DNA of 63,458 nucleotides from Nemertoderma westbladi (lineage: Eukaryota > Animalia > Xenacoelomorpha). Position 1 is the first letter of the stretch, and the number at the start of each line of letters is the position of its first letter. Location: positions 1 to 63,458 of the forward strand of contig JAUCBJ010001625.1 of the NCBI GenBank assembly GCA_032718475.1, read 5' to 3'. The notes under the pieces are model-generated. The model searched no databases. It had not been told where the DNA came from and saw nothing but the letters and a program-made list of their open reading frames with translations. Both the position numbers and the translations under genes were made by a program. Of the stretch, positions 21,039-46,692 are shown piece after piece.

Positions 21039-21045
21039 AGATAAG

Positions 21046-23276
21046 TGTTGTGTCCTCTACGGTAGTGACTACCCTACGGCCTACAAATCTACTAATATGA
21101 AGCTATAGAATATCTCTAACCGTAATGTCCAATAGTATACCGCTTACCAGATCCTAGTAACGATGTATCTTACTGTAAGACTCTAGTAATGAAACGGGCT
21201 CGTACAGTATCGGACAACAAATCCCAGTCCAGGATATCTAAACAAACAGATACAATACACAAACTACTACTGGCGAGGAGCAGAGCCTGGTGTCTATTCT
21301 ATGTACGTGAGCGGGTCTAATGCCTACGAACTAGACAAAAGGATACCTGTCCTCTAACCGGTATGGCAGATGTACAGTTACAGTAACAGACCAAACTGAC
21401 GGGAAAACAATCCCCGCGCAGCAAATCCTAACTATCGCTGACAGTCCTAAAATACCGTAACTTGCCGCGGTGTGATTTATATGGTTTATATACGAGCTAG
21501 GTGGGTTACAGCCCTAGCGTAACAATACTGATCTCCCTGTCTGAAGCAGTCTAAAAGGGGTCGTGCCTAATGTAACAATACTGCTGCTCTAGGCAAACAA
21601 CAGTTTAATAACAAAATAATGAAATACTCCCTTTGCCGTAACTAAATATCTGATCCTTATTTTACAAATACGAATAGTAAAGTGCAGATAAATTCTGCCT
21701 AAAGTAATCTAAAGTGCGCTATAACTAGTAGAACTCTAGGGGTAAATATGTTTTAGGGCGTATGTGTGTGGGTGTGTGTGTGTGTGGGTGTGTGTGGGTG
21801 TGTTACAATAAAACAATTTTGGTGTATATTATTTTACTAGGTTTTAGTAATTCTCTGACCAAAACAATACCGTGCGCTAGCTACTAAAATAAGCTAGTCG
21901 CGTTATTGTAGAACTTTATACTTACAAATGACGTCAAAGCTCTCTCCTTCCTATCCACAACTCAACTGGGCAACCACGGTGTTAGTAACTACACCCGTGA
22001 TCGGCACAAATACCAGATTCTGGTTATAAGATAAGAAATAGGGGTTAATTGCTACCGTACGCTAGCTGATCTGGTATACAAATTTGATTCTAGAACTTTG
22101 TTGCTGCTGTAGTTAGCAGCAAATACCTATCAGTACGTGGCAAGGCGCCGTAGGATATTAATAAAACCTCCCTAGGCCAAGCGGTGTGCCGGTAGCAGAA
22201 ATGCTCCTTGCCTGATCAAATAACTAACTTCAGGCAGGGGGGGGGGGGGGGGGGGGGTGTACTAATGTATAGTTCTACAGAACGAACCGGTACCGAACGG
22301 TCAGTTTGCGAATCACTAAATTATGGAACGTATGCTGTCTGTACCTAATATGTACTCGTGTACTGACGGACGGCAATAGCTCGCACCTGTGAGGTATACA
22401 GGTAACCCAGGGATTTGCAGGACTGACAAAGGGGGTTCTGCCTAGAACATAGTTATTTGATCCTAAATTTTGCGGCGTCCCAGAACGGCATCACGCTTAC
22501 CCTGATCTATAGGTCTTACTTCGGGCAAGGGCGTCAAACAAAGTCTTACCTTCCTCAGAAGTCGGGCGCTGCGTGGCAAGTGGAGTATTTCGTAGGGCAA
22601 AGGGGGTGCGCGGTCTAACCTAATGTGGGCGCTAGCGTGTTGTGGACATCCTTTCCCTGCGTTGCTGACGGCCTAACGGTCTAGGCAGCCATCTTCCTGC
22701 TGCTTGGCTGTCCCAAAGTTGGACAAAGGAAAAACTTGTTCAGAAATTGACAGTGTATTTACAGTTTAGCAAAAGATTTATCAAAACAGATTTACCAAAT
22801 AGTTTCAACAAGAAACTAATAACGAATGATTAGTGCAAGAAGTGAGACAAGAGTGAATGGTAAGGTGATAACCGAAGGCAAACCAGCCCTTATATACACT
22901 AAATCTGTGACATGGAATCCAAACAGAATTTTCCATAGCCTCACATTGGAGCAATAAGATGTTCTATGCCCTATGATTGGCCCAGCTCATCGTTCGATAC
23001 GTTGTACGCACCTCATTGGTCCACCAATCTGCACCAAGTGAAAATAAATTGCCCCAAAATGCAAACCTCCCGACCGGGATTCGAACTCGTAACCTATCTG
23101 TAATGTAACCAACGCCTTAACCATCTGACCACTACGCCATGAGAGTAACTAGGGGTTTTATGTGTACAAATATGAATAGGCATATTACAATACTGTAACT
23201 TAATCAAAATGCGTCGGGTTTTAGAAAGTTTTTACGTTAAACTACAAATGCTATCTTATAGTTAAATAATCCATCA
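21046..23276 (-). repeat. BEL-B 3' LTR (2231 bp)
   Basis: Direct repeat of 33950-36133; minus-strand ends TGATG...CAACA. Confidence 0.95.
23066..23138 (-). ncRNA. tRNA-like Pol III cassette in the BEL-B 3' LTR
   Basis: A-box-like TGGTCAGATGG and B box GTTCGAATCC, with TTTT shortly after. The acceptor stem does not pair, so it is not a true tRNA. Confidence 0.65.
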
Positions 23277-23290
23277 CCACTCCATGAAAA
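23277..23290 (-). promoter_or_regulatory. BEL-B polypurine tract
   Basis: Minus strand TTTTCATGGAGTGG abuts the LTR and resembles the BEL-C PPT TTTTCTGGGAGCGG. Confidence 0.7.
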
Positions 23291-23874: not shown

Positions 23875-24430
23875 CTACCGCTTTAATAGGATGGGGCTGA
23901 GGTTCTCGCGTCCATGTAGTCTCTGCGACAAACGCTGAGCAAAGGTGATACTATCGAAGAGCTCGGGTGTCATCTCCTTAGGTTCGGTTTGATCGTGGGA
24001 TATCCAGTAAAATGGTAGGCTCGCGAGCCTTCCGCCAAACTCCTCGATCTCGCCTTTCTCGTATTCCTTCAAATTCGTCCCTGGCTGCAGGTAAGGGTTC
24101 ATTTGCCGTCAGATATTGCAGCGTATGATATAATCGGCGTATCTCTGTGTCTGGATCCTTGAAAAATGTTACTGGCGTCGCATAACGCATTGTGGGGATA
24201 CAACGCATTGAACTCCGCGCGTAATTCCTCCGCTCTTTTGTTATAAGCGTCCAATCGCTGTCGCGTAACATTCGGGTCCGCCTTGGATTTAGCGAGCTTG
24301 GCTGTACTCCTAGCCATACTCTCCACTCCAAACACGTTAAAGTTTTGGCTCCATAACAATTAAATGGTGCCTGGTGCTCCTGTTCCTGCGTGAATCCCTG
24401 TATATGTAGTGTTTCTACTAGAGGAAGCAC
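23875..24430 (-). pseudogene. BEL-B remnant of the accessory gene (N-terminal domain)
   Basis: DPDTEIRRLYHTLQYLTANEPLP..DEFE aligns by eye with DPIMELKRLYFTMMYLTADRPLP..DSFE of the 1417-aa ORF. Confidence 0.75.
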
Positions 24431-25051: not shown

Positions 25052-28000
25052 CTAAATTACTAAATTACCGTATCCGTCGCTATCAACAAGTACCGAAATG
25101 GGCAACAATGTCATTGGCGCCTGCATAAGCAGGTGCGCTGGTGTCAAGGCAAACTGTGCGTCGTTATTGTCTGGGATCAAAGCGATCGGTCTAGTGTTCA
25201 AAGTCGCTTCAATTTCTATTAGTGACGTCGTCAGTTGGTCGTCTGTCAAGCTGTGTTGCGTCGGTATTACTTTAGCCATAGCTGTCTTAATTGAGCCAAT
25301 CAGCCTTTCCCAAACGCCCCCTCTCCACAGACTGTCTGGAGTATTAAAATTCCAAACAATACAGTGAGGACGTAGTACCTCGGCAATATGGTTTTGGTAT
25401 AACTTTCTTAAAGCTCTGGTTATTTCGTTCTGTGCGCCCACAAAGTTTGTCCCTTGGTCGCAATAAATGAATTTGACCAATCCACGTCTAGTGATAAATC
25501 GCCGTAAGGCTAGGATAAAAGCATTGGTGGTAAATCTGTCACTCGCTCAATATGGACAGCTCTGCTGGCCATGCAAGTGAAGATCAATCCCCAACGTTTT
25601 ACCTGTACCCTTCCGCGTTTTGCAATTATGGGTCCAAAACAGTCTATCCCTGTCTCAGTGAAAGGGGGTCTAAACGCCTGTAATCTCGCTAATGGTAGTT
25701 CACTCATTTCTTGGTGTCCTATCCTCGCATGCACCTTCTTACAAATCATACAGTTCCGTGTTACCGAACTCAGTGCCTTGCTAGGCCTAATCAGTACAAA
25801 CCTCAATCGTAAATGTGACAGACAGTGATGTCTACCCACGTGTTTGAGTTGTACATGTGCGTCCAGTATCATAGCGCGCTGTAACTCATGGTATTGCGGT
25901 ATGATGATAGGATACCTAAAGTCAAGTGCAAAGTCGATGTTTTGAAGTCTGGACTTGTGACAAAGTAAGCCCCGATAAATAATCGGACTCCAACTGAAAA
26001 TCGGTGAAGACTTGATCTGTTTACCTTGGTTGATCGCTGTAAACTCTCGTGCAAAATATCGCATCGCAATATCATTAAGGTAAGTCTTCTAGGAAAGTCG
26101 CGTTTGCCTCTGGCATATTGTCTCAAACGTTTGAGCCATGCTAACTTGCGGCACGCGTCAGTCCATGATCTAGTTAGGTTTACTATCCGGTCAACGTAAG
26201 TGTTAGTGACGTCATCAGGTAAGGTATAGTCATAGTGTGGATACTTGTTTGGACTTGGTAGGCCCACGGGCCTTCCGGTAGGTTTGTCTGAGTCCCCAAG
26301 TATGTCAAACTCCACGGTCTTACCTTTACCGTCCGCTCCTAGTGATTCGACTGGCAGTAACGGTTTCAACTCTACAGTATTTGTGTGTTCCTGTGAGCCT
26401 GTAAGCTTCCTAACCTTAGTTACACGTTTACCTGTAGGTGGTAAGTCAAGTACTTTCTTTGAGCGGAGTGTGATCGCTGTGGCCACACCTTTGTCGTCCA
26501 AAGAAGTCAAATTTGGTAAGTTTCTAATTGTCCGCTCCAATGGGTCTTCTACTGGAGTGTCTAGTAGACAGTCTGGTAAAACGTCCGGTGAAAAGTCTGG
26601 TGAGACGTCTGGTGAGACATAGCGCGGAACATCCGGCAAAATGTCCTGTCGTCGGTCCCAAAGAGAGTCAAGCGTAATTTCTGTCAGAAAGTCTGGTCTA
26701 AAGTCTGGTGGAGAGTCTGTCGAGATGTCTGGTGGAAAGTCTGGTGAGACGTCTGGTAGACAATCTGTCGAGAGTTAAATAAAACAATCTGGCGAACAAT
26801 CCGGAGAACAATCTGGTGTCGTTTCTGGTGAATAATCTGGCGAGTAATCTGGTGAACAATCCGGCGAAGCGTCTGGTGAAATCTCCCGCGGAACATCCGG
26901 TGAAAGATTCGTATGAGCGTCTGGTCGAGATTCTGGTGAGACGTCTGGCGTAATGTCAGGTCTAGCATCCAGGTCATCAGATTTCGTCAGTCCTTGTTTC
27001 CTCTTGACCTTGGCGTTGGCTTTCGCTTTAGATTTGACAACCTTGTCGATTTTTATCTCGGCACCCTCTGGTATGGTATTGGTTGTCGCGTCGAATAAAG
27101 GTGGCCATTCGTCTGATGGTCGCTGTAGGAAATCGGGTCCTCTAAACCAAAGGGATTTATTGTCCGGTTTACAAAAGTCAAGCGGTTGCATCCCCCGTGA
27201 TGCGATGTCAGCTGGGTTCAGCTTCCCTGGACAGTGACGCCAATCTTGTTTGAGCGACCGGTCTAATATTTCAGCCCATCTGTTGGCTACGAAAGTATTG
27301 AACTCAAATGCTTCGTTGTTTATGTACCAAAGTACCAACGTCGCATCCGTCCAGTATGTGACCTTCAAGTTAGCCTCCAGCTCGCGTAGAACTAGACTGA
27401 CAATATCGGTGGATATCGTCCCGGCTTGCAGCTCTCCACGAGGTAGTCATATACTTCAATGGCATTGTTCTAGCTCTTGAAGTAACGAGAGACACATCGT
27501 AGCTGTCCGATGTCACTTGTCGTCTAAGGTATAAAGTAACCCCCAATCCATCCTTGCTAGCGTCACTAAAGCTGTGAAGCTCTAAATCAGCAGGAAAGGT
27601 GGTCTGCAAAGGAAAGTATACCCTTGGTATGGTATAGTCTTGTAGGAACGTCAGTTGGGCTTCCCAGTCCCTCCATTGTTCAGCTAGCTTTTCTGGGATG
27701 GGGTCGTCCCATTCCAGTCCGGCTTGCCAAATGCTGCGGAGTATGATCCTAGCATGTAGGATCACTGGACTAATGAAACACAATGGGTCATACAATCGAC
27801 TCATGGTCAATAAGCAAGTCCTCTTAGTGAGAGGTCTAGTCTGGTTGTTGGACCTTACACGTACCCTAAAATTGTCGGTGTTAGGGTCCCAACTAAGTCC
27901 TAATACTTTGGTCGTCGGTAGAGGTTCTAGGTCTAAGTCTAAATCTCCTCCACTGCGATCCGTCGGGTCAAATGAGTCCACTAGTTCGGGTTCGTTGGAA

Positions 28001-29627
28001 GCAAACTTCGTAAGGCGGAATCCGCCCTCAGCGAGACAATCCTGGAGTTGGTGTGCTACGGTTGTAGCGCGCTCCAAAGTGTCACAACTCTTGAGGCCGT
28101 CATCCACGTAGAATTCTCGTTTCACTGTCCAAACTACTTCTGGGTCAAATTGATCTCGTCTGTCTAGTGCGGTCTGCTTTAAGGCGTACAAGAAGGTGCA
28201 GTTGGGGCTGTCCCTGGCTCCGAAAACTCTTACCTGCATTTGGTAAGTTTCTGGCGGAAATTTCCGTCCGGATACCAAAGAAACCTCAAGCTGTCCCTGT
28301 CCCGCTCCAAAGCCTTAACATGGTGAAACATGGCCTCTACGTCACAGGTGAAAGCCACTCTGCGTTGTCTAAAACGCATTAGGACTCCCATGAAGTAATT
28401 ATTCATATTCGGCCTGTCTATCAGTTCGCTGTTCATAGACATTCCTTGGTAAAGTGCTGCGCAGTCGTTGACTACACGCACCTTGCCAGGTTTGTCCGGG
28501 TGTCGAACAAAATGATGTGGCAGGTAATATGTCTGATCTGTGGTTACGTCGGGATTTAACATTCTAATGGCGTATCCCTTTTGGAGATACGTCTGAAGTT
28601 GGGCATTGTATTGCATATGGGCCGTCTTGTCTCGCAACAATCGCTGCCTTATTGATTTGAGTTGCCTTAAAGCAAGCGGGTAATTGTTAACAAGCTTAGG
28701 TTGTCCATTGCGCCACAACATGCCAACCTTGTAGTGGCCATTCGCGGTCTGGCAAATAGTATCTCTCATAATATTTAATGACCGTTTTTCCTGTTCTGAC
28801 ATAGCGGTCTCGTAACTACCGGGTTCTGCTGAGTCCTGTTCCAACCATTGAATGGTCCGTTCAGTCAGCAGTCGGTCAAGCGCTGCTTGCACTGCGCCAT
28901 GGTCCTCGTCCACATCTTCGTCCGCTGCGGTGGCTAGTGTCAATGTGTCTGGTAGGCTCGCAAGCCTTCCGGTGTCACTAGTCGGCGTAGAATCGTCGTG
29001 CGGCGGTTTGACAACCTCTTTATCTGTCGGTAGGCTCGCAAGCCTTCCTAGATCAAAGACCGGTGTTGAAGCTTGGTGGGTGGGGTCAATGACCTTTGGA
29101 TTTTTCGGTAGGCTTGCAAGCCTTCCAAAAACCTCGTTCATCGAATCAACATTCAACCCAATCAACATCGCGATTGAGCAATAGTTAACAGGACATTCCG
29201 GTATTCCAAGATGTCGGAAACACTTACGATCTTCCGGTGATTGCTCTGGCATAGGGCCGAGCAAGTTACTAAAGTCCTTCGTAGCTGCAAAGGTCAAATT
29301 TCTTACCGAAAGTAATGAGCGCTCCTCCTTGCTGTGTTCCGCTTTGGAAAGAAGAGTGTCTAAGGTTAGTTTTACTCTTGTCACTGGGATCGCTCTCTTA
29401 CCATACATGCTGCTTACAGCATACTGAGCAGTCTTACCTTGACTCATGTCCGTAACTACGTCGGCTACTTGTTCGTCGACATGACTATGCAATGACGCAG
29501 AATCTAAGATAGTGTATATACGCTTGCTCCCTCGGGTTCCGGTAATCTTTATAGGAATCACGCTAAACCCTTTCAATTGGTTCTGTGTGAGGAGTGTTAC
29601 CGATGGCTGTTCCTCACCCGCATGCAC
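25052..29627 (-). pseudogene. pol: BEL-B pol (PR, RT, RNase H, IN), frameshifted
   Basis: TILDSAS, DVEAMFH, FYVDD, FSDAS, NPADIASRG, TGIDCFG, DQGTNFVG and WERLI across six ORF pieces. Confidence 0.93.
26560..26960 (-). repeat. 12-bp coding minisatellite, (SPDx)n, between RNase H and integrase
   Basis: TCTGGTGAGACG-like units on plus, translating to SPDVSPDCSPDYSPE on minus. Confidence 0.85.
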
Positions 29628-29708
29628 GTAGAAAGTATTGTCTTCCTCCTCATCCTCGTCCGATGATCCCGATTGATTCGTACAATCCGCATAAAACGTA
29701 CGGATCTC

Positions 29709-32700
29709 TCACGGCGCACGCTTCTTGTAAAGCGCGTCGCATCTAGCCGCTTTATCTAGATGCTCTCGTCGAAAGCGTCTGGTCGGAGTATGACTTGTTG
29801 AGTGAAGTAAAGCGTCGTGGTTACTTCCACACTGAGGACATGTATCGTCGCTCGGGCAATCCTTCCGGACGTGTCCTGGCTTCGTACATCTCCAGCAAGA
29901 ATCCAAAGATCGAATTTGAAGTCTTCTCTCTTCGATTCCTAACTCCCTAAAAGCGCAACATCCACGAAGTTTATGTCCGCTATGGTTTCTGCCGTTCCGC
30001 TCGCAGTATGAGCATCCCACAAAGTCCGCCGGCAACTGTTGTCATGGCTGCGTGGTGCCGATAGGCATCAGAACTTTAGAAGTCTCAGTAGGGGTGGCGT
30101 AGGTAACGGCTTTCGCGTTCGTCAGAAATGGTTTGGTCCGAGTCGGCGCAGAAATAGCTATCCCTTCTGCCGCGATATAGTGATCAGTGTAGTTTGATCG
30201 AGTCTCGATCACGGCCTCCCGTGAAATCAGTTGGTAGACGTCGGTGAGTTTCAAAAGCCCGCCGGCTTCTTCACGCTGGTACTCGATGCGTCGCCATTCT
30301 CGTCGGAGTCGATAATGAAGTCGACCGATTATCCTGATGAGAACCGTCGGTGCGTTTGCGTATTCGAGTTGTCCAATGGACCGTAAAGTCCCTATAGCGT
30401 TTTTGATTTCGTCCGCGAGTCGTAGAAGGTCGATCGGTCTCGAAATGTTGCCTCCTCTGCAGAGGTCTTCTATAATGGATTTAGCCATGGCCACGTTAAC
30501 GCCGTAAATCGAATACAAATGGTCGTACGCCAACTCAAAGGCATCTGGAACACCAATAAAGGTTTCCGCTAATCGTTTCGGCTCACCAGACAGGACTTGG
30601 AGCAAGTAATTAACAGGACTTCTCCGCCGATGTGAAAGCACACTTAGCAATCTGGGACTCTACGTAGTCTACCAGTGTGCGCCAGTGTTTCGCGTTGCCA
30701 GAGAACTTCGGCGGTTGTTGGGCCGGTAATCCGTGTCTAGCCGCAAATTTTGCAATCTCGCTAACCAAATCCAACTGTCCGCGTCCCTGTTCGGTTGCGT
30801 CGTCCAGTCGTTCCCTTCCGTGCATTGTCCGTCGGTAGGAATTATTAACGGGATCTTCTTCTCGATGGGTCAGAGTCTGTCTAGTCTCCTGTTCTCTCCG
30901 TGGTAGTTGATGTTGTTTAGGTTGTTCTAACTCCACGCTGGTTCGTGATCGATCCGACGGTTGCGCTTCGAGTCGTTCTTCGAGTTGAGCTAGTCGGTCC
31001 GTCACAGGTCGTATTATTTTGGCGAGTCTGTTGGTGCTGATCGCTTCCGCTGATCGCTTCCGCTGGTTGCAACGTGGGTTTCTGTTGGGGTATTTCTCGT
31101 GGTGGATTGTCGATGTATGGGTTCGTTAATCTCTCCTCCCGTTTGTAATCAGCCGCCGCTCCAGTATGGAATATTTCCCGTTCCGTAGACTCCGAGGCAC
31201 TGGATGAATCGCTGTCGTCCGTATAAGTTGGTTGGCGGGTTCGCGTATGGCGTATTACTCTTGGTCGAGTTCGTTGTGATCTGGGATCTACGGCTCTCCG
31301 TTGTTCGGTAGGCTCGCAAGCCTTCCACGTAGTCATAGGTCTCGTTAAACATTGGGTGAGAGGTCTAGTAAAAACATCAGAGTTAAGTGCTACTGTAGGT
31401 TTATAAATGACTGGGTTCGCACAGCACGTCACAGGTTTAACTTGTAATGGTTTACTCACCTGTTTTACCGTCATAAACGCAGGTTCGTCTCTCTCTACAA
31501 GTAAACTACGGCTTACAGTAGGTGGACTGCGATCTTACCTGCGAGAATCAGCGATGAAGTCGCTCGTGGCTGCGGAATTGATTCCGACATAACAAACCTA
31601 TTACCTTGCACGGGTGATATTTTCTTCTGTTTTGCAAACATAACCGATTTTAATGGAGTCGTGGGTTTGAGCATAGGAATAACTTGGGGAAAACGTTGAC
31701 AGTAATCCTCGACGAACTCCTCTCCTTGATCTATTGCTCCCAAACTTCATTCCTCGATTTGCTTCTGAATTCCGCGATATCGAGTCTCCATGCAATCCAG
31801 GGCAGACAAGTCATGTCCAGCTCGAGACCTTATAGATCTATCTCTCGTGTCAAGTTCGAGGTCCTCTTGCGCGTTCGCCGCCTTGCGCGATCTGCGATTT
31901 AGTTCGAACTGGAGCTGCATCTCCCTTTCACGTCGATCTGCTTCCTGTTGTTGTGGCGTTAATTCTGCTTCTTGTATAGCTAGTCGAGCGTTAATTTGTC
32001 GCGCCTCCAACTTGGCACGAGCGTCGGATGCTGCTTTCTTCCGTGCTGACTCAGCTGCGTTTACCGCCACAACTCGTGCTAACTCATCAGCTGCTGCCGC
32101 CGCGGCCGCTTCCTCCAATCTTCGCATCTCCGTGGCTTCGAATTCGGCTTGCGCCTTGAGTTGCGCAATTCTCGCCTCGTCCTCTCTATGTTGTTTCTCT
32201 CCCTCGATGGCGATCTGTGCCATCTGCCATTGCGCTTCTTCCTCGACGACTTGTTGTCGGCGTGCGACCTCCTGTTGTTGTCGAGTAATTACAGACGCTG
32301 TCCTACTAATGTCGCCAACGTCGCTCCGCACACTAACGAACGATCTATCCAGTGGTGGAATTTGGTAGGCTCGCGAGCCTTCCGTAGAGAGAACTTCCGT
32401 CGTCCCTCTCGGTACAACTTCCGGTTCTTCGATCAGTACGCCGCATCTACGAAGAAAATAAGTGAGCGTCTCTAACAGTTCTTCTTCCTCTTTGGGTTGT
32501 AACAACGCATCCGAAATTTACTCACCTAGCAGTTGGTCGAGCTGCTCCTGTTGAGCCAGTCTTATTACTGACTTAAACTGAATAAGGCTTTCTCTCGCAC
32601 TTACCAACTTATCAATTATCTTTACCTGAGTAAAGTTGTCGCCACGCAACTCTGCAAGTTTGTGTAAACCTTTAAGTTTATCTACGGAAGCATGTACCCT

Positions 32701-32808: not shown

Positions 32809-33939
32809 GTGTCCTCCTATACTCCTAATAACGTTCTCCTGGCTTCCAGTCGAACTTACATTGTCCGGTTCCCGCGATCTGGTCTGCGGGACGGTAAGGA
32901 AATCTTCAATTCTGCCGTCACCACGCGTTGCGGCTTCCGGTATTTCCGTTCAGGGTACCGGCGATGCACGCGGTGTGACATCGGTGGAATCTCGGGTTCT
33001 CCTTCTCGGTTCGTCTACTGTCGATCTGTCCGGGTCGCACGAGTCATAGTCGGTAGGAGGGTATCGAGTCGAATGTGGTGTGTCACTCATGTCTTATTAT
33101 ATACGTCGAGTACAGGTAATAAAAGGTCAAAGTATCAAAATGTCAAACTTACCTTGGTATATATATATATATCATATATATACCCTAACCGGTACAAATA
33201 AAACTAACAAAGTATATAATAAAATATGTAATAATCTAGCCTACCGGCTAAATTTGTACGAATAAGTGAGATAATGGTATACGTTCCCAAAATGTAGATC
33301 AACAAGTACAAATAATAGGCAAAACAGCAACGTCTAATGGGAAAATAAGTACCAACAACACTACTAATTTAGACAGTGAAACCCACAAATTTTGAGTACT
33401 ACTGTGCTTTCTAAGTTTGAACGACACGAGTCATAAAACTTACGCTCCTTTGATCTTCCAGTCGTGCAAATTCCCAAATACAAACAGGACGTAGGTCGTT
33501 CCGTTTTTTGGCGGTGCGGACGAAATTTGTGTCTCCCAAACTTTGCGAAAAGCGGTCTAATCCTCAAAGCGGTCCAGAAATGAGTCCTTGAGTCTTGAAA
33601 AGTCGAAGGTGAGAGTTTTACTTCTACTCTACGAAAAATCTTCCTAGGTACCGATACAACTTGGTCTTTAAACCCTATGTACCTTTTCAAGTACCGAAAG
33701 TAACACCGCACACACACAGCATAAAACATTGCTACAAACTAACTATTAGCTAGTCAAATGTTAAATACGAAACTACTAGCTACCCTAAAGGCCTACTGAA
33801 GCAGGGGACGTTCTACAAATTACTAATTTTACTAATTTTAAATTTTTTAAATATCTCCTACATTTACAATAGCTAACAATATATTTATATATCTCACCTT
33901 AAAATGCGCACGCACTTCCGGTCGAGATATTTAATAAAA

Positions 33940-33949
33940 TATACCTCAC
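33940..33949 (-). promoter_or_regulatory. BEL-B non-canonical primer-binding site (self-complementary)
   Basis: Minus strand GTGAGGTATA directly follows the LTR end with no TGG. It is complementary to TATACCTCAC in the LTR (35246-35255 and 22389-22398). Confidence 0.7.
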
Positions 33950-35709
33950 TGTTGTGTCCTCTGCGGTAGGGACTACCCTACGGCCTACAAATCTACTAAT
34001 ATGAAGCTCTAACCGTAAAGTCCAGTAGTATACCGCTTACCAGATCCTAGTAACTATGTATCTTACTGTAAGACTCTAGTAATGAAATGGGCTCGTACAG
34101 TATCTGACAATAAATCCCAGTCCAGGATATCTAAACAAACAGATACAATACACAAACTACTACTGGCGAGGAGCAGAGCCTGGTGTCTATTCTATGTACG
34201 TGAGCGGGTCTAATGCCTACGAACTAGACAAAAGGATACCTGTCCTCTAACCGGTATGGCAGATGTACAGTTACAGTAACAGACCAAACTCACGGGAAAA
34301 CAAACCCCGCGCAGCAAATCCTAACTATCGCTGACAGTCCTAAAATACCGTAACTTGCCGCGCTGTGATTTATATGGTTTATATACGAGCTAGGTGGGTT
34401 ACAGCCCTAGCGTAACAATACTGATCTCCCTGTCGGAATCAGTCTAAAAGGGGTCGTGCCTAATGTAACAATACTGCTGCTCTAGGCAAACAACAGTTTA
34501 ATAACGAAATAATGAAATACTCCCTTTGCCGTAACTAAATATCTGATCTTAATTTTACAAATACGAATAGTAAAGTGCAGATATATTCTTCCTAAAGTAA
34601 TCTAAAGAGCGCTATAACTAGTAGAACTCTAGGGGTAAATATGTTTTAGGGCGTGTGTGTGTGGGTGTGTTACAATAAAATAATTTTGGTGTATATTATT
34701 TTACTAGGTTTTAGTAATTCTCTGACCAAAACAATACCGTGCGCTAGCTACTAAAATAAGCTAGTCGCGTTTTTGTAGAACTTTATACTTACAAATGACG
34801 TCAAAGCTCTCTCCTTCCTATCCACAACTCAACTGGGCAACCATGGTGTTAGTAACTATACCCGTGATCGGCACAAATACCAGATTCTGGTTATAAGATA
34901 AGAAATAGGGGTTAATTGCTACCGTACGCTAGCTGATCTGGTATACAAATTTGATTCTAGAACTTTGTTGCTGCGGTAGTTAGCAGCAAATACCTATCAG
35001 TACGTGGCAAGGCGCAGTAGGATATTAATAAAACCTCCCTAGGCCAAGAGGTGTGCCGGTAGCAGAAATGCTCCTTGCCTGATCAAATAACTAACTTCAA
35101 GCAGGGGGGGGGGGTGTACTAATGTATAGTTCTACAGAACAAACTGGTACCGAGCGGTCAGTTTGCGAATCACTAAATTATGGAACGTATGCTGTCTGTA
35201 CCTAATATGTACTCGCGTACTGACGGACGGCAATAGCTCGCACCTGTGAGGTATACAGGTAACCCAGGGATTTGCAGGACTGACAAAGGGGGTTCTGCCT
35301 AGAACATAGTTATTTGATCCTAAATTTTGCAGCGTTCCAGGACGGCGTCACGCTTACCCTGATCTATAGGTCTTACGTCGGGCAAGAGCGTCAAACAAAG
35401 TCTTACCTTCCTCGGAAGTCGGGCGCTGCATGGCAAGTGGAGTATTTTGTAGGGCGAAGGGGGTGCGCGGTCTAACCTAATGTGGGCGCTAGCGTGTTGT
35501 GGACATCCTTTCCCTGCGTTGCTGACGGCCTAACGGTCTAGGCGGCCATCTTCCTGCTGCTTGGCTGTCCCAAAGTTGGACAAAGGAAAAACATGTTCAG
35601 AAGTTGACAGTGTAATTACAGTTTAGCAAAAGATTTATCAAAACAGATTTACCAAATAGTTTCAACAAGAAACTAATAACGAATGATTAGTGCAAGAAGT
35701 GAGACAAGA

Positions 35710-35876
35710 GTGAATGGTAAGGTGATAACCGAAGGCAAACCAGCCCTTATATACACTAAATCTGGGACATGGAATCCAAACAGAATTTTCCATAGCCTCA
35801 CATTGGAGCAATAAGACGTTCTATGCCCTATGATTGGCCCAGCTCATCGTTTGATACGTTGTACGCACCTCATTGG
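35710..35876 (-). promoter_or_regulatory. Probable Pol II promoter of BEL-B
   Basis: Minus strand has two CCAAT boxes (35872-35876, 35833-35837), TATATAAG (35746-35753) and an Inr-like CCATTC ~30 nt downstream. Confidence 0.6.
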
Positions 35877-35922
35877 TCCACCAATCTGCACCAAATGAAA
35901 ATAAATTGCACCAAAATGCAAA

Positions 35923-35995
35923 CCTCCCGACCGGGATTCGAACTCGTAACCTATCTGTAATGTAACCAACGGCTTAACCATCTGACCACTACGCC
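35923..35995 (-). ncRNA. tRNA-like Pol III cassette in the BEL-B 5' LTR
   Basis: Same A/B-box cassette as 23066-23138. Confidence 0.65.
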
Positions 35996-36364
35996 ATGAG
36001 AGTAACTAGGGGTTTTATGTGTACAAATATGAATAGGCATATTACAATACTGTAACTTAATCAAAATGCGTCGGGTTTTAGAAAGTTTTTACGTGAAACT
36101 ACAAATGCTATCTTATAGTGAAATAATCCATCAATAAGATAAGATAAGATATAGTATTCGGAGATAACTCCAGTTAGAGTAGCGCACAGACAACATTAAA
36201 AATCACAATAAAAGGCACAATGTACCGACCAGGACAAAAGTAAAAAGGTTAACACGGTAAACGAGGCGACTGATACTCTAGCTTAAGTAAATATCAATTA
36301 ATATAAAATATGCAACGCATTGCACAAAGTATTTAAATGAAATAAAAATTCACAACGAAACAAG

Positions 36365-39300
36365 TTACAAATTCCTATAAAAATTGCAGTATTTAGTGAG
36401 ATCGCATTCAATAAGTTTTAGTTTAAATTGCTCCACAGAAATACTGGTAACAATATCATCGATGAGGTCATTCCAGATATTTACAACTCGATTAAAGAAC
36501 ATATTCGATATTGGGTTAGTAGCACATTTAATGCCTCGACTACTACTACTAGGATCGGCATGCTGCATTGCAGCTGCATTTTTAAGAATGCTGTGCCGGA
36601 TTGTCAACAAAATTGCACCGCCACAACTCCCTATCACCCATGACATTTGCTAGATCATCCGCATCTTTAAGGCCAGTGTCCTTTAAGATGCGTCTCAAGA
36701 AAGTCATGGGCTGTCCACCATGCTTATTCACTCCATGAGGCTGCCAAAGTACAAGATTATGCACTGGCTGGTCCTCACGGCGAAAGCAATGTCCTTCAAA
36801 GCGGAGGCGATTTTGTTCTAGTGACAAGCTTGGGGGAACCAATGAGACACCTCCAATGTTATATAGTGTCTGGTTGGAGATGTGTGCATTGTACTTGACA
36901 CAATAAACCCGGCGTAGCATTCTCGTGAATGTGCCATCCAGAGATTTGGTGACCTCAGCAGTTAGAGCCCAGCATGGACTCCCGTAGAGGAGTACTGGAA
37001 CTACTGCTGCTCTAAATAATCGGACCTTAAGTTTCCGATTAATTCTCGGTGCCTCGAAGTTTATATGAGTGGCCACGAGTAATTAAAAGTGATCGCTGGA
37101 AGTATTTTTTGAGGATCAAGGTCTAAAAGATTATGCATTATTTTATAAGTGTACACCAAATCAATATGGATCCTACGTAATTCCAGCGGTTGCAAATTTA
37201 AAAATGAAAGCCTATCTACATAACACATGTCACAATCCAACTTACACCGATAGAATAGTCAACGGGTGAAATAACGTTGAGTCGCTTCAATTTTGTCCGT
37301 AAGGCCGAGAAATGGCGCGCCAGAATAAAATGGGTTCCAGACACAGCTAGCGTACTCTAGAATGGGTCTAACAAACGCTGTATATGCACATAATAATGCC
37401 TGAACGTTAGAAGTTAAAAAGCATCGAAATATTTTATTTATAGACCGATAAGCAGAGGATGTAATAGTCATTACATGTTCTGTAAATTTAAGATCCTTAT
37501 ACACAATCACTCCAAGATCGCGATACGAATTAACATTTGCAAGTTGCGTATCATTAATTCTATATGATGAAGGCATAGCTACATTACCAAGGGTGAGGCT
37601 TTTACATTTTGTTTCTTCTAAATTCAACTGCCAATCACTAGACCAACTGGAAAAAATATCAAGATTTTTCTGCAGTAATATACGGTTATCAATATTACGA
37701 AAAGCACAAAATATCTTGGCATCGTCAGCAAAGAGCCTAGAATTAATACCGGAAAGGTGCGTAGGCATATCATTAATGAAAATAATAAATAATAGGGGAC
37801 CGACACACGAACCCTGTGCTACACCCGATATAACTTTGTGAAAATTAGAAAAGCTTTCACCTATTTTCACTCGCTGAACATGATCAGTTAAATAGCTGGC
37901 AAACCAGCGATGCAAATTACCTGTAATTCCATAACATTTAAGTTTAATTAACAATTTACTAGGCACAACAGAGTCAAATGCCTTGGCATAGTCTGTGTAT
38001 ACTACATCAGTAAAACATTTTGCATTAAGGGCAGTTGCCCAATTATAGGTGCAGTCTAAAAGTTGAGTGGTAGTGCTACGGCCCTTGATAAATCCGTATT
38101 GTTCATCTGTTATTAAATTGTTCCTTTTTAAAAAACCCGACATTTCATGAACTATGATTTGTACTAGAACACGACAGACTGAAGAAGTGATGGAAATAGG
38201 GCGATAATTAGCACCAATGGACGCATCGCCTTTTTTGTAGACAGATGTAATATCAGCCTGTTTCCAACACTTCGGTAATGCACCAGTTAAGAGTGATTCA
38301 TTAAATAATATGCACAATGAATAACATAATTCAAATCTAAATATTTTTAAGGTAGCAACAGGAATGCCGTCTGGCGTATCACCAAATTTATACTTTATTA
38401 ATAACTTTAGATTCAGAAATGCAATCAATGTCAAAAGTTTCGTCAGTTTGCTGGTTAAATACAGGAAATTCACCATTATCTACATTACCGACAGATGAGT
38501 ATTGAGTTATCAGACAATCACATTTTTCTTTGTCAGTGGTTGCTAGGGAACCATCCTTTTTCTTTAAGGGGGCTATAGAGCTACGATTTGTTGTACGGCT
38601 CTTAGCGTATTTAAAGAATGCTTTTTTATTTTTACTAGATAGAATTTTCAATTCTTGTTGCATGTGAAAGGAACGGATTGCCTTGTCAAACTCAAAGCAC
38701 ACACGTCTATACGCTTGTAGATCAGACGTAGACCTATTCCGTAGACGCCAGAGGCATCGTTTGTTTGCTTGTAATTTTCTGATATGTAGGGGTGGCCTAT
38801 AACGATTGCTACATAATTTATAAGTAGGTACATATTTAACAAACAAGTCAGCAATTCTAGATTGAAACGAGTCCCACTTGGAGTTTATATCATTACAATT
38901 TAGGAATTCTGTATCCCAATTTATTTGAGACAACTCTAATTTCAGCGCAGATTTATTCATCTTCGAAAAATTAAACCTAGGTTGTGATGTGAAGGAATTG
39001 CTGGCATGTGGCGCTGACAAAACCAAGGAAAACGAAAAACTGTCATGATCACTATTACCAATAGCAGGTTCACATACTAAGTCTGACACTAATAGAGGGT
39101 CAGTGCACAGTAAAAGATCTAATGTTCGAGATTTGCGCGTTGGAAAGTCAACTAGTTGACAGAGGTTTGACGCAGAGACTGCCTCGATAAATAAATCGCA
39201 CTGTGTATTGTGTCTGTACCCTATATTAGTCCAGTCAATGTCACCAAGGTTAAAGTCACCTAATACGTACACAGGGTAGTCAATTTCAGACAAAAATATA

Positions 39301-39722
39301 AGCAATTCGTTAAGTAGTTTTAAATAAGCATACATTGCATTCCTATCACTATAGCAGGTTCCAGGAGGGCGATAAAAAGATACCATTCTAAATTTATCAT
39401 GAACAGACGTATCAAACGCGACACATTCAATATTGTGACACTTGGGAGGTATAAATACCTTGGCCGGGTGTAGTGCGACTCGACAGGCAAGCATTACACC
39501 ACCTCCATAACCGCGATCTGAACCGCGGTCCCATCGGAATATTTCATATTCCTTCTCAAGTTCATTGCCTGTTATTAACGAATTTACATCATCGTTCTTT
39601 AGAAAAGTTTCACAAATTCCCACTATATCGTGGTTAGATAATATAACTTGCACTTCTGCACGTTTACTTTCGTCACGTACAGATTGTGTATTAGCAAAAT
39701 AACATGATAATTTAGGAACCAT
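36365..39722 (-). pseudogene. CR1-type ORF2 (APE endonuclease plus RT), frameshifted and interrupted by RTE
   Basis: ICETFL, GDFNL, LDLLL, SDH; NYRPISITS, DYAKAFDSV, GVAQGS, LFADD, RGHSYKL and FFNRVVNIWNDL. Confidence 0.93.
36540..37049 (-). mobile_element. RTE-clade LINE, 5'-truncated, with 8-bp TSD
   Basis: TGCCTCGA at 36532-36539 and 37050-37057; (TAG)n tail. Removing it restores CR1 RGHSYKLRGIKC. Confidence 0.93.
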
Positions 39723-39939
39723 ATCGCTATTGTATTACGAGTGGTCAAAGTTTCATTAAGAACGGTGGTTTTGTTAGATAAGTTTACTACTGGGTTACCT
39801 CCTGATCGTTCTCCGCTGTAGCGCGTACTACTGTTGCCGGGTTCTGAAACCTTGGTCCGATAATTGGTGTACGGAAGTTATTTTTCTGACGTTGAGTGTC
39901 GAGTTTTCCAGATGCGGTGTCATAGTCGGCCTCAGAAAT

Positions 39940-41178
39940 TGTAAAAGCTTTTGTGGGATAACTGGTTCGTTTGCTTTGCTGGCCAGTTCCCCCCTGGTCG
40001 CTAGAAATACTCAAAAGGGGATCTGTAGTTAAAATAGTGCAAGCTACCAGCTTATTGGCTGATTTGCGGTATGCAGGTATCTGGGCTCTGTTTAATCGTC
40101 CAACTAGCCTAAGGGGGTTGCGTCATAGCCCTGTTTTTTGTATCTCCCAATAGAATTTGAGTTATCCTGGATTTTAACCAATCCTGAGCTACTGAACTGA
40201 AATTTTCCTATCTCACTGCTCATCCTCTGTGTTGAACGGGAGCTTCGTGGAATAAGTGTAGTTGGTATTCTCGTAGTCACGAGTTTTTCAAAGCCACGAA
40301 AGAACGGCTTTATAGTGTTTTGTGCTTTTCTGCTTTTAACTCAACACTAGTAGGTTTAATTATAAGGACATATATCCTTTAACTGGCAAAACGCACTAAC
40401 CAAACTGCACTACAAACGGCGGACCAGTAAACAAACTGCCTGACGCACGGCATACTACTGACTGCTGAAACATTGCAAACTCATAACAATCAGTGTTCAG
40501 TTGTTGTTTTATACTGCTATTTACTGTCGGTTATTCATTATATTTGTGGATGAATTATTATATTTGGAATAACGATAAATACCCCGAAACCCAATATTCT
40601 TGATATACCGAAGGTAAGAGAGAAAGGTTACAGATAAACGATTGTGACTTATGTTAAAGTGGTTTGAAGTGAATCTAATGTTATTTGATAGACCCTACAT
40701 GAGTCAGCCTGTGTTCCTTTTATATGTGACTAAAATCAGTGAAGATCGGCAGATTAGTGTGCAGTATTGTGCAGCATTGTGTATGCGTGAGTCTGTTAAA
40801 GAAGCATTTCCTAAAGAATGCGCCATATATGTTAATTATAACTAAACCATATCGTTGTGAGTAGTTTAAGTCATAACTCTGTTTATATAGATAGAGCGCC
40901 ACGTCCTAAAGGAACTGTTAATATTCCCCGAAGGTGAATAATATTGTCAGAGATTATATAATACTGTCAGTCGAATAATACATTAGGCTTACATAGCAAT
41001 AAGATTAAACCGTCGAACCCAATCTCCCGGGTATAACCAGCAGGTGAATGATCGCGCACGGATTGGTTTCGACTAGTGTAGTGAATCAAATACTTGTCGT
41101 AGGCAGAAAAGCGATTTAATATCTAGAAGACATCATAATTTGGCGGGTTAAACTGCCAAAGGTCTGAAAGCGCGAACA
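39940..41178 (+). repeat. BEL-C 5' LTR
   Basis: Direct repeat of 60484-61722. Confidence 0.97.
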
Positions 41179-41190
41179 TTAAAGGATATA
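41179..41190 (+). promoter_or_regulatory. BEL-C non-canonical primer-binding site (self-complementary)
   Basis: TTAAAGGATATA directly follows the LTR end and is the exact reverse complement of TATATCCTTTAA at 40371-40382 (and 60915-60926). Confidence 0.75.
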
Positions 41191-43138: not shown

Positions 43139-44587
43139 ATGTCTGATACTAAGCAGAACCTGTCAGACAGTCTATTAGATGTAACTATCTGCAACTCGGA
43201 TAGAGGTGTAGAACCCTCTAGTCGTAAGTCCAGTTCACCTCCCACTGTGAGGAAGGTCATCCCTCCAGTAGTAATAACAGAACCTAGGCTAGTCCAACAT
43301 CGTAGGTCTATCATAGGCACCCGAGCTCAGGTCAAGCGGGACCAAGAAGCAGCGGAACAGCAACAACCCGCGAGTCAAGAACTTATAACTCAGCGGCCCA
43401 GCAGCTCCAGTAGTGAGGATACTGTAGAGCTGACACCCGAGCGCGGAGCAGAGATGACGGATGCGGTTTATACGGATCCCCTTCTCATCCTTCCTGCAGC
43501 CGTACTCACTAGGTTATTGATCGCGGTGGAAGAACACCAGATCGATTGGGCGAGAAGTCAACGACCAACTAGAGATAGTTATGCGGGATACACGAGTGAA
43601 GAACTGAAGTCTATTGTCGAGTCACAATGGAACTTCCCCGGACCCGGACTCCCGTTTGATTTATCAGAAGCTGCCTGGGAAGACATACACCGGATGGGAG
43701 TAGCCAAGGAAACCATCGATCCAGCTGTATGGAAGAGGTCCGCAGCCGGATACGCACAAGGATTCTTCAGCTCTATGGAGCGAGTAGAAAAACAACTGTT
43801 TCAACAACCTCAAGGACCTCAAGAGCAGGGATCGCTGCTTTATCAAGTTAGAGAAAGAGTTCTGCGAATTAGGCTAATCTTATCCGCCTTTGAGGAGGCT
43901 TCTAAAAGAAGACAAGACACGTCGTTGCAAGTTGCCGTGAAGACTTGGTTTCAACGAGTGAGACGCCAGGTTCAAGGAGCAGCTCAGTGGAAAGCTCAGT
44001 TGGAGGAGCGCTCAACCCATGGAGAATCAACCGACGCTACTTTTTCCCAAGTGGAAAGTGAAGCGACGGCAGAGAAACCACATAAGAAGGATGCCATTGA
44101 CATCTATCTGTCAGACTATCAGCGCTTTGTAGGAGACGCAGAGTTGAGGAGAAGGTTAGAGGGACTTAGCCCTAATAGCGAAGGAGCCAAACTTGTGTTG
44201 GATGCAATTGATGTAGATAGGTTAGCGGCGAACCAAGCTAAATTCGATGAACAACTCCGCATCGCTAGAGAAAGGGAAGAACAAGTAAAGAAAAAACGTA
44301 TAGAAGACAGAAAGGCAGCGGCAGTAGCAGCAGCAGTGGCATCTGCAGAGGCTGAAAGAAAAACGGCAGCGGCAGAGGCAAAAGCGGCAGCGGCAGAGGC
44401 AGCGGCAGAGGCAAAGGCAGCAGCCGAAGCGGAAAGAAAGGTGGCGGAGGCAGTGGTAGAAGCAGAACGGAGAGCGGCTGAAGAAACCAACCAATTAGAA
44501 TTGGAAAACATTCAAGAGAATCAAGACTGCATAAACAATAATAACATAAACAAACTGCTAAGCAGAACCTGTCAGACAGTCTATTAG
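43139..44587 (+). CDS. gag: BEL-C gag N-terminus, copy 1 (ends at duplication junction)
   Basis: ATG at 43139; Ala/Glu/Lys coiled coil similar in character to BEL-B gag. Confidence 0.75.
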   Translation: MSDTKQNLSDSLLDVTICNSDRGVEPSSRKSSSPPTVRKVIPPVVITEPRLVQHRRSIIGTRAQVKRDQEAAEQQQPASQELITQRPSSSSSEDTVELTPERGAEMTDAVYTDPLLILPAAVLTRLLIAVEEHQIDWARSQRPTRDSYAGYTSEELKSIVESQWNFPGPGLPFDLSEAAWEDIHRMGVAKETIDPAVWKRSAAGYAQGFFSSMERVEKQLFQQPQGPQEQGSLLYQVRERVLRIRLILSAFEEASKRRQDTSLQVAVKTWFQRVRRQVQGAAQWKAQLEERSTHGESTDATFSQVESEATAEKPHKKDAIDIYLSDYQRFVGDAELRRRLEGLSPNSEGAKLVLDAIDVDRLAANQAKFDEQLRIAREREEQVKKKRIEDRKAAAVAAAVASAEAERKTAAAEAKAAAAEAAAEAKAAAEAERKVAEAVVEAERRAAEETNQLELENIQENQDCINNNNINKLLSRTCQTVY

Positions 44588-45947
44588 ATGTAACTATCTG
44601 CGACTCGGATAGAGGTGTAGAACCCTCTAGTCGTAAGTCCAGTTCACCTCCCACTGTGAGGAAGGTCATCCCTCCAGTAGTAATAACAGAACCTAGGCTA
44701 GTCCAACATCGTAGGTCTATCATAGGCACCCGAGCTCAGGTCAAGCGGGACCAAGAAGCAGCGGAACAGCAACAACCCGCGAGTCAAGAACTTATAACTC
44801 AGCGGCCCAGCAGCTCCAGTAGTGAGGATACTGTAGAGCTGACACCCGAGCGCGGAGCAGAGATGACGGATGCGGTTTATACGGATCCCCTTCTCATCCT
44901 TCCTGCAGCCGTACTCACTAGGTTATTGATCGCGGTGGAAGAACACCAGATCGATTGGGCGAGAAGTCAACGACCAACTAGAGATAGTTATGCGGGATAC
45001 ACGAGTGAAGAACTGAAGTCTATTGTCGAGTCACAATGGAACTTCCCCGGACCCGGACTCCCGTTTGATTTATCAGAAGCTGCCTGGGAAGACATACACC
45101 GGATGGGAGTAGCCAAGGAAACCATCGATCCAGCTGTATGGAAGAGGTCCGCAGCCGGATACGCACAAGGATTCTTCAGCTCTATGGAGCGAGTAGAAAA
45201 ACAACTGTTTCAACAACCTCAAGGACCTCAAGAGCAGGGATCGCTGCTTTATCAAGTTAGAGAAAGAGTTCTGCGAATTAGGCTAATCTTATCCGCCTTT
45301 GAGGAGGCTTCTAAAAGAAGACAAGACACGTCGTTGCAAGTTGCCGTGAAGACTTCGTTTCAACGAGTGAGACGCCAGGTTCAAGGAGCAGCTCAGTGGA
45401 AAGCTCAGTTGGAGGAGCGCTCAACCCATGGAGAATCAACCGACGCTACTTTTTCCCAAGTGGAAAGTGAAGCGACGGCAGAGAAACCACATAAGAAGGA
45501 TGCCATTGACATCTATCTGTCAGACTATCAGCGCTTTGTAGGAGACGCAGAGTTGAGGAGAAGGTTAGAGGGACTTAGCCCTAATAGCGAAGGAGCCAAA
45601 CTTGTGTTGGATGCAATTGATGTAGATAGGTTAGCGGCGAACCAAGCTAAATTCGATGAACAACTCCGCATCGCTAGAGAAAGGGAAGAACAAGTAAAGA
45701 AAAAACGTATAGAAGACAGAAAGGCAGCGGCAGTAGCAGCAGCAGTGGCATCTGCAGAGGCTGAAAGAAAAACGGCAGCGGCAGAGGCAAAAGCGGCAGC
45801 GGCAGAGGCAGCGGCAGAGGCAAAGGCAGCAGCCGAAGCGGAAAGAAAGGTGGCGGAGGCAGTGGTAGAAGCAGAACGGAGAGCGGCTGAAGAAACCAAC
45901 CAATTAGAATTGGAAAACATTCAAGAGAATCAAGACTGCATAAACAA
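43149..45947. repeat. Tandem duplication, offset 1409 bp
   Basis: 43149-44538 is repeated at 44558-45947, with a 19-nt filler between copies. Confidence 0.95.
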
Positions 45948-46692
45948 ACAGTTAACAGCTAGTAATATGCAGATGATGAATCGATCTACTCCCAAACGAC
46001 AAGGTTATACATCATCTGAGGAAGGCGATACCACCGATACTGAAGGCAAAGGAAATAGATCTCGTCTAAGTAGACGTAAAAGAACATTCCACCGTCAGAA
46101 ATTGCCTGATTTGCCTCCAGCTGTTAGAAGGCAACTAAATAGCACCAACTTAGGTAGTACAGAACCCACAGACCAAATAATTAAAATCGAAAGACTCCCT
46201 ACTATAGTAGATGAGCCTGAAATAATTAGGCCTGTTCTTGAAATCACCCCTACTGTGATAGACACACCTGTGCTCCCTGAAATAACCGCTAAATTCCCTC
46301 TGCATAGCACTAAGCTACCTGTGCCCCGTAGAACTGCCCAGGCGACAGTTCAGGTCCTGGACCCCGAGCGAAATATTCATAATTTGTCGCCCGTTGTCCC
46401 TCGTCCGCCCGCTACATCGTTGGCGACTCCCGCTTCGGCGGTCGAATGGGTGGACGAGAGACGGCGGGGGATGGATATCCTGCTCGGGCAGATGCAGGAG
46501 ACTGTCCAGCAATTTAAGGGCACGGTAAGGGAAAGTAGACTAGAGTTGCAAGAAGTGCAGCAAAGTATCGCGCTAGAGCGCGATACCCAAAGAGGTGAGG
46601 TCTCTATAGGGGTGTCGCGAACAGGCGGCGGCGGGCTCGTGAGGGTCTGGGGGCACGTTAAATCCTCTAGTATAGTGCAAGGGAGTTACTGA
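44656..46692 (+). CDS. gag: BEL-C gag N-terminus, copy 2 (runs into the solo-LTR-like insert)
   Basis: Nearly identical to copy 1, then continues until the insert at 46613. Confidence 0.75.
   Translation: MRKVIPPVVITEPRLVQHRRSIIGTRAQVKRDQEAAEQQQPASQELITQRPSSSSSEDTVELTPERGAEMTDAVYTDPLLILPAAVLTRLLIAVEEHQIDWARSQRPTRDSYAGYTSEELKSIVESQWNFPGPGLPFDLSEAAWEDIHRMGVAKETIDPAVWKRSAAGYAQGFFSSMERVEKQLFQQPQGPQEQGSLLYQVRERVLRIRLILSAFEEASKRRQDTSLQVAVKTSFQRVRRQVQGAAQWKAQLEERSTHGESTDATFSQVESEATAEKPHKKDAIDIYLSDYQRFVGDAELRRRLEGLSPNSEGAKLVLDAIDVDRLAANQAKFDEQLRIAREREEQVKKKRIEDRKAAAVAAAVASAEAERKTAAAEAKAAAAEAAAEAKAAAEAERKVAEAVVEAERRAAEETNQLELENIQENQDCINKQLTASNMQMMNRSTPKRQGYTSSEEGDTTDTEGKGNRSRLSRRKRTFHRQKLPDLPPAVRRQLNSTNLGSTEPTDQIIKIERLPTIVDEPEIIRPVLEITPTVIDTPVLPEITAKFPLHSTKLPVPRRTAQATVQVLDPERNIHNLSPVVPRPPATSLATPASAVEWVDERRRGMDILLGQMQETVQQFKGTVRESRLELQEVQQSIALERDTQRGEVSIGVSRTGGGGLVRVWGHVKSSSIVQGSY

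Follow-up and report, generated by a model that had tools for sequence, protein, structure and literature searches.

Self-primed LTR retrotransposons have been described among the Ty3/gypsy chromoviruses, where Tf1 and Tf2 of S. pombe, Tj1, Tosmo/Tcry and the Tf1/sushi group are reported to prime with their own RNA (PMC7175516, PMC4600332, PMC10085805, in the text portions available). In Tf1, a match of about 11 nt pairs primer and template, the 3' end of the primer being produced when RNase H cleaves the RNA duplex (PMC7175516, available text), and two helper duplexes are required, the whole forming a three-duplex 'pretzel' (PMC10085805, available text). For the plant Ty1/copia TAR lineage (Houba, Osr-1) and the Tcn1 clade, self-priming has been predicted from an LTR complement of at least 10 nt located 0-5 nt past the LTR, so that the accessible parts of this literature report or predict it for Tf1/sushi, Tcn1 and copia TAR (PMC6317226, PMC4600332).

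The BEL/Pao superfamily stands apart. According to the ICTV, a host tRNA primes these elements: the Belpaoviridae are given an 18-nt primer binding site (PBS) matching tRNA-Arg or tRNA-Gly, with LTRs measuring 0.2-1.2 kb and genomes 4.2-10 kb in length (PMC8742986). Descriptions of self-priming are confined to some gypsy and copia groups. A term search of the accessible text of four BEL/Pao surveys (PMC554778, PMC3118150, PMC6238403, PMC8556966) found no discussion of the PBS or of priming; the available parts of PMC8220671 contain a generic mention only, and those of PMC12440569, PMC13524379, PMC4558846 and PMC6934838 nothing on self-priming in BEL elements. BEL/Pao self-priming was thus not found in this literature, of which subscription papers, Repbase reports and supplements may hold an earlier remark.

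BEL-B is a BEL/Pao retrotransposon with an unusual primer binding site

We analysed a contig of Nemertoderma westbladi (JAUCBJ010001625.1, assembly GCA_032718475.1, forward strand), whose entire 63,458 nt we call the window. It holds three BEL/Pao elements, A, BEL-B and BEL-C (Table 1).

Table 1. Coordinates of the features of the three BEL/Pao elements in the window.
Feature	Position	Strand	Remarks
BEL-B 5' LTR	33950-36133	-	2184 nt, TG...CA; self-BLAST
BEL-B 3' LTR	21046-23276	-	2231 nt, TG...CA; self-BLAST
BEL-B target site duplication	36134-36138, partner 21041-21045	-	CTTAT, 5 bp, flanks both outer LTR ends
BEL-B polypurine tract	23277-23283	-	adjoins 3' LTR
BEL-B gag-pol	25052-32517	-	DUF1759 gag, protease, RT (YVDD), Pao RNase H region (PF05380), integrase
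BEL-B remnant of extra ORF	24056-24175	-	homolog of BEL-C extra ORF residues 167-206
BEL-B PBS position	33940-33949	-	GTGAGGTATA, adjoins 5' LTR; no TGG
PBS complement in BEL-B 5' LTR	35246-35255	-	LTR nt 879-888; candidate self-primer
PBS complement in BEL-B 3' LTR	22389-22398	-	
Hairpin around BEL-B site	35242-35260	-	6 bp; 3' arm overlaps possible splice donor at 35243
Initiator-like motif TCAGTC	35278-35283	-	28 nt before site; candidate start site or splice acceptor (prediction)
Predicted Pol II promoter of BEL-B	35747-35876	-	CCAAT x3 (LTR nt 258, 297, 328), TATA box 35747-35753
BEL-C LTRs	39940-41178, 60484-61722	+	99.5% identical; target site duplication GAAAT
BEL-C PBS position	41179-41190	+	TTAAAGGATATA, no TGG
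BEL-C PBS complement	40371-40382 (5' LTR), 60915-60926	+	12 nt
BEL-C extra ORF	56137-60405	+	1422 aa; DEDDy-like 3'-5' exonuclease region about 58237-58986; zinc knuckles
Extra ORF zone of element A	4413-7906	-	
Exonuclease-like region homolog, element A	5891-7663	-	broken, partly duplicated

BEL-B is a BEL/Pao LTR retrotransposon, with its LTRs, target site duplication, polypurine tract, DUF1759 gag and the order protease-RT-RNase H-integrase, and it resembles the Belpaoviridae in these features as well as in its Pao RNase H region. Its LTRs are 95.5% identical in self-BLAST, with 53 substitutions between them, and its gag-pol is interrupted and split over several frames. The domain order is marked by PF03564 (E 8e-4, below the cut-off), PF05380 (E 8e-33) and PF17921 (E 2.5e-5, just below the cut-off), and PF05380 is present in 19 of 19 homologs. 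The differences from the ICTV description are the lack of the tRNA-Arg or tRNA-Gly site, LTRs of 2.2 kb and a span of 15.1 kb (PMC8742986); since a tRNA-type PBS is missing, the placement in the superfamily rests on the proteins.

With the Tf1/sushi elements, as far as the available text describes them, BEL-B shares the absence of a tRNA PBS, a complement of about 11 nt in the 5' LTR and a PBS that adjoins the terminal CA of the LTR. Those elements, however, are Ty3/gypsy chromoviruses, whereas the proteins of BEL-B are those of BEL/Pao, and BEL-B is not a Tf1/sushi member. BEL-B and BEL-C also both show the feature by which TAR and Tcn1 elements were recognized, at least 10 nt of complement 0-5 nt past the LTR, although those are copia or gypsy elements, in plants, and the available portions of the source do not state where the complement lies with respect to the start of transcription.

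BEL-C is a young, internally duplicated element; it gives no RT match and is missing most of its pol. Element A has no LTR pair inside the window.

The PBS pairs with a segment of the element's own LTR

The reverse complement of GTGAGGTATA occurs only twice in the window, once in each LTR of BEL-B. The initial annotation had described a perfect 10-nt pairing that ends exactly at the LTR edge, and this was borne out: both LTR sites were located, and the pairing does stop at the edge, as the base 3' of the site is unable to pair with the last A of the LTR. At the other end, by inspection of the sequence, a G-U pair formed by the G at 35256, immediately 5' of the site, would bring the duplex to 11 bp. 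The complements of BEL-B and BEL-C are contiguous in the DNA and require no splicing, and across all GT/GC-AG pairs no splice junction lengthens either match at offsets 0-2.

Such a match is rare by chance in a randomisation of the kind that the same annotation had proposed. Among 3000 first-order Markov LTRs for BEL-B, a complement of at least 10 nt was found at offset 0 in 18 and at offsets 0-3 in 41, and 34 of 10,633 internal positions of BEL-B reach 10 nt of LTR complement. The 12-nt complement of BEL-C appeared in none of 3000 Markov LTRs and at one of 19,265 internal positions. Its argument that two elements repeat the geometry with different letters holds as far as chance is concerned, but their independence does not: the LTRs and leaders of BEL-B and BEL-C give no alignment and their PBS letters differ, yet the two elements are related, through an extra 3' ORF common to both (48% identity over 40 aa).

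The leader of BEL-B (33844-33949, minus strand) also holds two degenerate repeats of a PBS-like word. A predicted leader hairpin would sequester the PBS and is not significant (z -1.50), nor is a hairpin at the end of U5 when compared with shuffles (z -1.06).

The arrangement recurs among metagenome relatives

Of 554 confirmed BEL loci in metagenome contigs, we used the best 80 as relatives; these form 50 nucleotide clusters, 21 of them outside the assessable set. Scans of viral contigs gave no relatives. In eight families (L002, L009, L017, L018, L025, L052, L067, L079) the LTR end is set independently by the divergence of two LTR copies. All eight have a non-TGG PBS, different in each, with a complement of 11-14 nt in their own LTR. 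This complement spans the junction of a predicted GT-AG intron of the LTR in seven families and is contiguous in one; the match starts at the LTR edge in seven and at +4 in L067. The background of matches of at least 11 nt at non-CA positions is 29 contiguous and 9 junction matches among 20,802 positions. We restricted the count to these eight families because a permissive junction scan of 17 uncalled loci returned scattered 11-mers at non-terminal positions. L060 and L023 were left out for want of a second copy fixing their ends, and L019 was dropped since its repeat is an internal duplication. Ten further clusters with motif-defined ends, chosen after the match had been seen, match at 10-14 nt, and L001 has a 10-nt junction match found by eye. 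Another ten have a non-TGG end and a best match of 0-8 nt in partial LTR sequence, a low value that probably reflects the missing part of the LTR.

We then exchanged PBS and LTR among 18 clusters (10 of them selected after the match was seen), BEL-B and BEL-C. The own LTR supplied at least 10 nt of complement in 20 of 20 cases; among 360 pairs with a foreign LTR, 6 did so. These 20 families display 16 distinct first 11-mers of the PBS. The match is mostly 11 nt long, as it is in Tf1 (PMC7175516). In 22 of 23 rows pairing starts at the first base past the LTR, and the terminal CA is never included; a T after the segment, which would extend pairing into the LTR, occurs in none of the 22 edge-starting rows, which are related to one another, T making up 31% of the BEL-B and BEL-C LTRs. 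A complement that covaries with its own LTR and begins at the first base beyond it fits the need of a primer and not that of a structural helix.

In 13 of 21 rows the segment is followed by an AATAAA or ATTAAA at a distance of at most 36 nt, which would place the segment in R; L017 enters this count scored at a nearer acceptor, which hid its hexamer. GG[AT] is found 15-20 nt before the 3' end of the segment in 18 of 21 rows, as well as in BEL-B and BEL-C, and several relatives have TATA- or initiator-like motifs 50-113 nt upstream of the segment. Precise loss of a GT-AG intron, of 168 nt in L032 and 536 nt in the 3' LTR of L025, left the complement contiguous.

Some copies of L025, L030, L032 and L009 show precise loss of the LTR intron. 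L025 retains the intron acceptor in one LTR and has the spliced form in the other, and its contig is possibly chimeric. In L007 (509-829), unrelated sequence gives way to likeness between the 5' and 3' LTR 14 nt before the splice donor, a point that may mark the border of U3 and R.

A quick tree of 70 RT-RNase H segments puts BEL-B and A as sister to a group of 56 rows that includes all these loci (support 92), in a midpoint-rooted analysis with long A and B branches, its careful search unfinished and no named BEL/Pao references (Sinbad, Sparrow, Surcouf, Suzu, Tas, Dan, Flow) among its rows. Judged from these sequences, BEL-B reads as the contiguous, long-LTR form of an arrangement found throughout the lineage.

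Copies of the BEL-B family

The BEL-B family is abundant in DNA contigs, 3528, 2083, 1637 and 110 of which aligned in four runs. We checked variation over 33895-33995 in 121 contigs from these runs, representing at most three samples. Substitutions occur at 33952-33964 and indels at 33935-33936, and no substitution is listed at 33940-33951, where the PBS lies. A canonical TGG PBS in other copies of the family was looked for, as the annotation had proposed, and none appeared among the contigs of the four runs as listed, nor among the loose contig ends listed. These loose ends, at 33895-33938 in three runs, come from a sister sub-family that has the leader of BEL-B but differs from it in the LTR end and in the PBS, again a non-TGG one.

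Position of the segment in the transcript

All start sites, poly(A) sites and splicing events considered here are motif predictions. The predicted TATA box lies 498 nt upstream of the BEL-B site, and the distance of about 460 nt from start to site derives from this predicted box. The 5' LTR contains a single initiator-like motif of the form TCAGTY, namely TCAGTC. Depending on whether the TATA box or the initiator is followed, the primer would carry a predicted 5' tail of about 470 or about 26 nt. The 120 nt that follow the site contain no poly(A) hexamer; ATTAAA first appears 744 nt on. A sigma-70 promoter scan was set aside as inapplicable to a eukaryotic LTR. In other contigs of the family the CCAAT-bearing unit of U3 is tandemly duplicated (joints 35851 to 35752-35760).

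Two statements of the initial annotation have to be revised here. The hairpin that was said to display the site does form in the model, but 63 of 200 shuffles fold equally well (z -0.36), and its stem includes the last two bases of the site, so that the 3' end is hidden rather than displayed. The annotation had also reasoned that the primer 3' end must come from cleavage or trimming, in contrast with Tf1. The reasoning stands, since under each of the promoter readings considered here the complement is not formed by the first bases of the RNA; the contrast does not, as Tf1 too cleaves internally. In Tf1 the transcript's first 11 nt serve as primer, while the BEL-B segment is predicted to be internal, 26-470 nt downstream according to promoter motifs, so that the real difference is the 5' extension that precedes the primer. 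Most relatives of BEL-B depart from Tf1 in a further respect, their segment spanning a predicted splice junction.

We also considered a primer end left by the first splicing step at the donor at 35243. This was rejected: such an end would carry two additional bases opposite the terminal CA, and neither BEL-C nor the intron-less copies have a donor there.

Discussion

Our data support the view that the geometry of PBS and LTR is not due to chance and that a tRNA-type PBS is absent, and they make self-priming of some form in the BEL-B lineage quite likely. The arrangement would work by analogy with Tf1-type self-priming, outside Tf1/sushi. Our preferred model, to which we give a probability of about 0.5, is that BEL-B primes with an internal LTR segment of 10-11 nt, the 3' end of which is produced by RNase H cutting where the duplex ends. 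The segment would be transcribed within R, downstream of the start site, with splicing of the LTR intron by the host assembling it beforehand in most relatives, and would anneal to the PBS inside the particle. There, the RT-RNase H of the element would cleave the RNA-RNA duplex immediately 3' of the segment, in the manner shown for Tf1, yielding a 3'-OH for which the first template base is the last A of the LTR. The BEL-B primer would then bear a 5' tail, of about 470 nt if the TATA box sets the start and of about 26 nt if the initiator-like motif does. Minus-strand DNA would be copied back to the cut and jump to the 3' LTR using the sequence from the segment to the poly(A) site, the effective R extending from the cut to the poly(A) site.

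Several observations weigh against this model. Local hairpins compete for both the site and the PBS in the model, L067 has a gap of 4 nt, and the pol of BEL-B is broken. The three-duplex 'pretzel' of Tf1 was not found in BEL-B or BEL-C: in flanks of 40-60 nt, random LTR windows did as well as the six helper duplexes tested in 55-205 of 300 cases. Also, with a primer acting in cis, the families with a junction would need the 5' intron to be spliced and the 3' copy to stay unspliced, as the intron would otherwise be lost.

Other explanations have to be weighed against RNase H cleavage of an internal segment. That the match arose by chance, or reflects a host tRNA fragment or small RNA sharing the sequence, might be argued from BEL-B alone, for which p is about 0.006-0.014, but the result for BEL-C, the eight of eight delimited families and the swap control largely refute this, and we consider it extremely improbable. 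A structural function of the pairing is easier to conceive, with the leader folded for packaging, dimerisation, translation control or shielding of the PBS while another primer is used. Long-range pairings between U5 or R and the leader are common in retroviral RNAs, and the failure to find helper duplexes would agree with such a role. Nonetheless, a structural helix has no need to begin at the LTR edge, as the pairing does in 22 of 23 rows, or to avoid the terminal CA; moreover, no alternative primer site is evident, and with 16 different 11-mers in 20 families as many host primers would be called for. We therefore regard a purely structural role as unlikely. The likelihood shrinks somewhat further for a strictly Tf1-like start, in which transcription would begin within a few bases of the segment, the primer would be at or near the 5' end of the RNA, and the 460 nt would stem from a wrong promoter call. 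The GG[AT] motif before the segment in most rows, in BEL-B and in BEL-C suggests such a start, as do L007, where the likeness of the two LTRs begins 5 nt before GG[AT], as it might at a border of U3 and R, and the initiator-like motif close to the BEL-B site. This would nevertheless leave aside the CCAAT boxes and TATA box far upstream in BEL-B, the tandem duplication of the CCAAT unit, which is typical of U3, and the TATA- or initiator-like motifs 50-113 nt upstream in several relatives, and it would impose a first exon of about 10-15 nt on the junction families.

Self-priming could also proceed through 3'-to-5' trimming, a short capped LTR transcript or the 3' copy of R being chewed back by an exonuclease of the host or of the element. 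The transcript could come from any LTR, solo LTRs included, and would be spliced in most families. The poly(A) hexamers close to the segment in 13 of 21 rows would place it close to the RNA's 3' end, which suits trimming, and a primer supplied in trans would explain why LTR introns are retained in unspliced genomes. In BEL-B, however, about 750 nt separate the site from the predicted poly(A) site. A candidate enzyme is suggested by the extra 3' ORF, whose DEDDy-like region is found in A and C and of which BEL-B keeps an N-terminal remnant. Both A and C have YDNEG, a second D motif and YxxxE (aligned by eye with the reference motifs ExoI D-x-E, ExoII D and ExoIII Y-x3-D, E standing in the last position instead of D). 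Atlas scores, which we count as one source of evidence, are 0.87 for the whole BEL-C ORF and 0.93 for residues 670-960, with 24 of 30 matches in clusters bearing PF01612. P0020, the top-ranking homolog (E 2e-7), itself matches PF01612 weakly (E 0.2), and only three distant homologs were found among 1.84 billion representatives; the ORF also carries three zinc-knuckle-like motifs. Word-based homolog searches with the BEL-C ORF gave no match, PDB sequence searches returned the zinc knuckles only, no significant Pfam match covers the exonuclease-like region, and its structure models (pLDDT 32 and 35) are unusable. We thus take the DEDDy-like exonuclease of A and C as a lead only. An extra 3' ORF with such a region likens A and C to Juno and Vesta of bdelloid rotifers, whose ORF3 is DEDDy; those are other LTR lineages, and the available text of PMC5408684 mentions no link of ORF3 with priming. 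Furthermore, in 35 related loci pol homology ends 20-216 nt short of the polypurine tract, which leaves no space for an extra ORF; some of them show the same PBS geometry, so an exonuclease of the element is not generally required. On balance we find trimming rather unlikely. Its most specific form, in which a short LTR transcript, spliced by the host in most families and provided in trans even by solo LTRs, would be trimmed to the PBS duplex, in this sub-lineage by a DEDDy exonuclease that had been captured and is specified by the extra ORF, is more doubtful still.

Use of an internal primer in a third superfamily, in animals, would imply a further origin of self-priming and a wider range of primers usable by RT-RNase H. 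In most relatives, replication would be tied to host splicing of the LTR intron. Annotation pipelines that rely on the PBS would tend to overlook or mis-score such elements.

Other features of the window

In U3 of BEL-B, a tRNA-like stretch with A-box- and B-box-like motifs, recognized by eye (35915-36005, minus strand, also present in the 3' LTR), is possibly a captured SINE head or a Pol III promoter; neither ARAGORN over the entire window nor Rfam over 33500-36200 gave a match, this stretch included. Between RNase H and integrase, a 12-nt tandem repeat (26535-26973, minus strand) encodes an insert rich in S, P and D. The gag-protease region of BEL-C (43149-53727, plus strand) contains nested tandem duplications of 1390 and 4006 nt, 99.8% identical. 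Fragments of LINE-type endonuclease and RT lie at 14604-16457 (plus strand) and 37259-39734 (minus strand), one of them inserted at the gag of element A. The window also has a pair of 480-nt inverted repeats (754-1233 and 36544-37023) and tandem arrays with units of 43 nt (19821-20678), 22 nt (16706-16815) and 20 nt (8219-8318).
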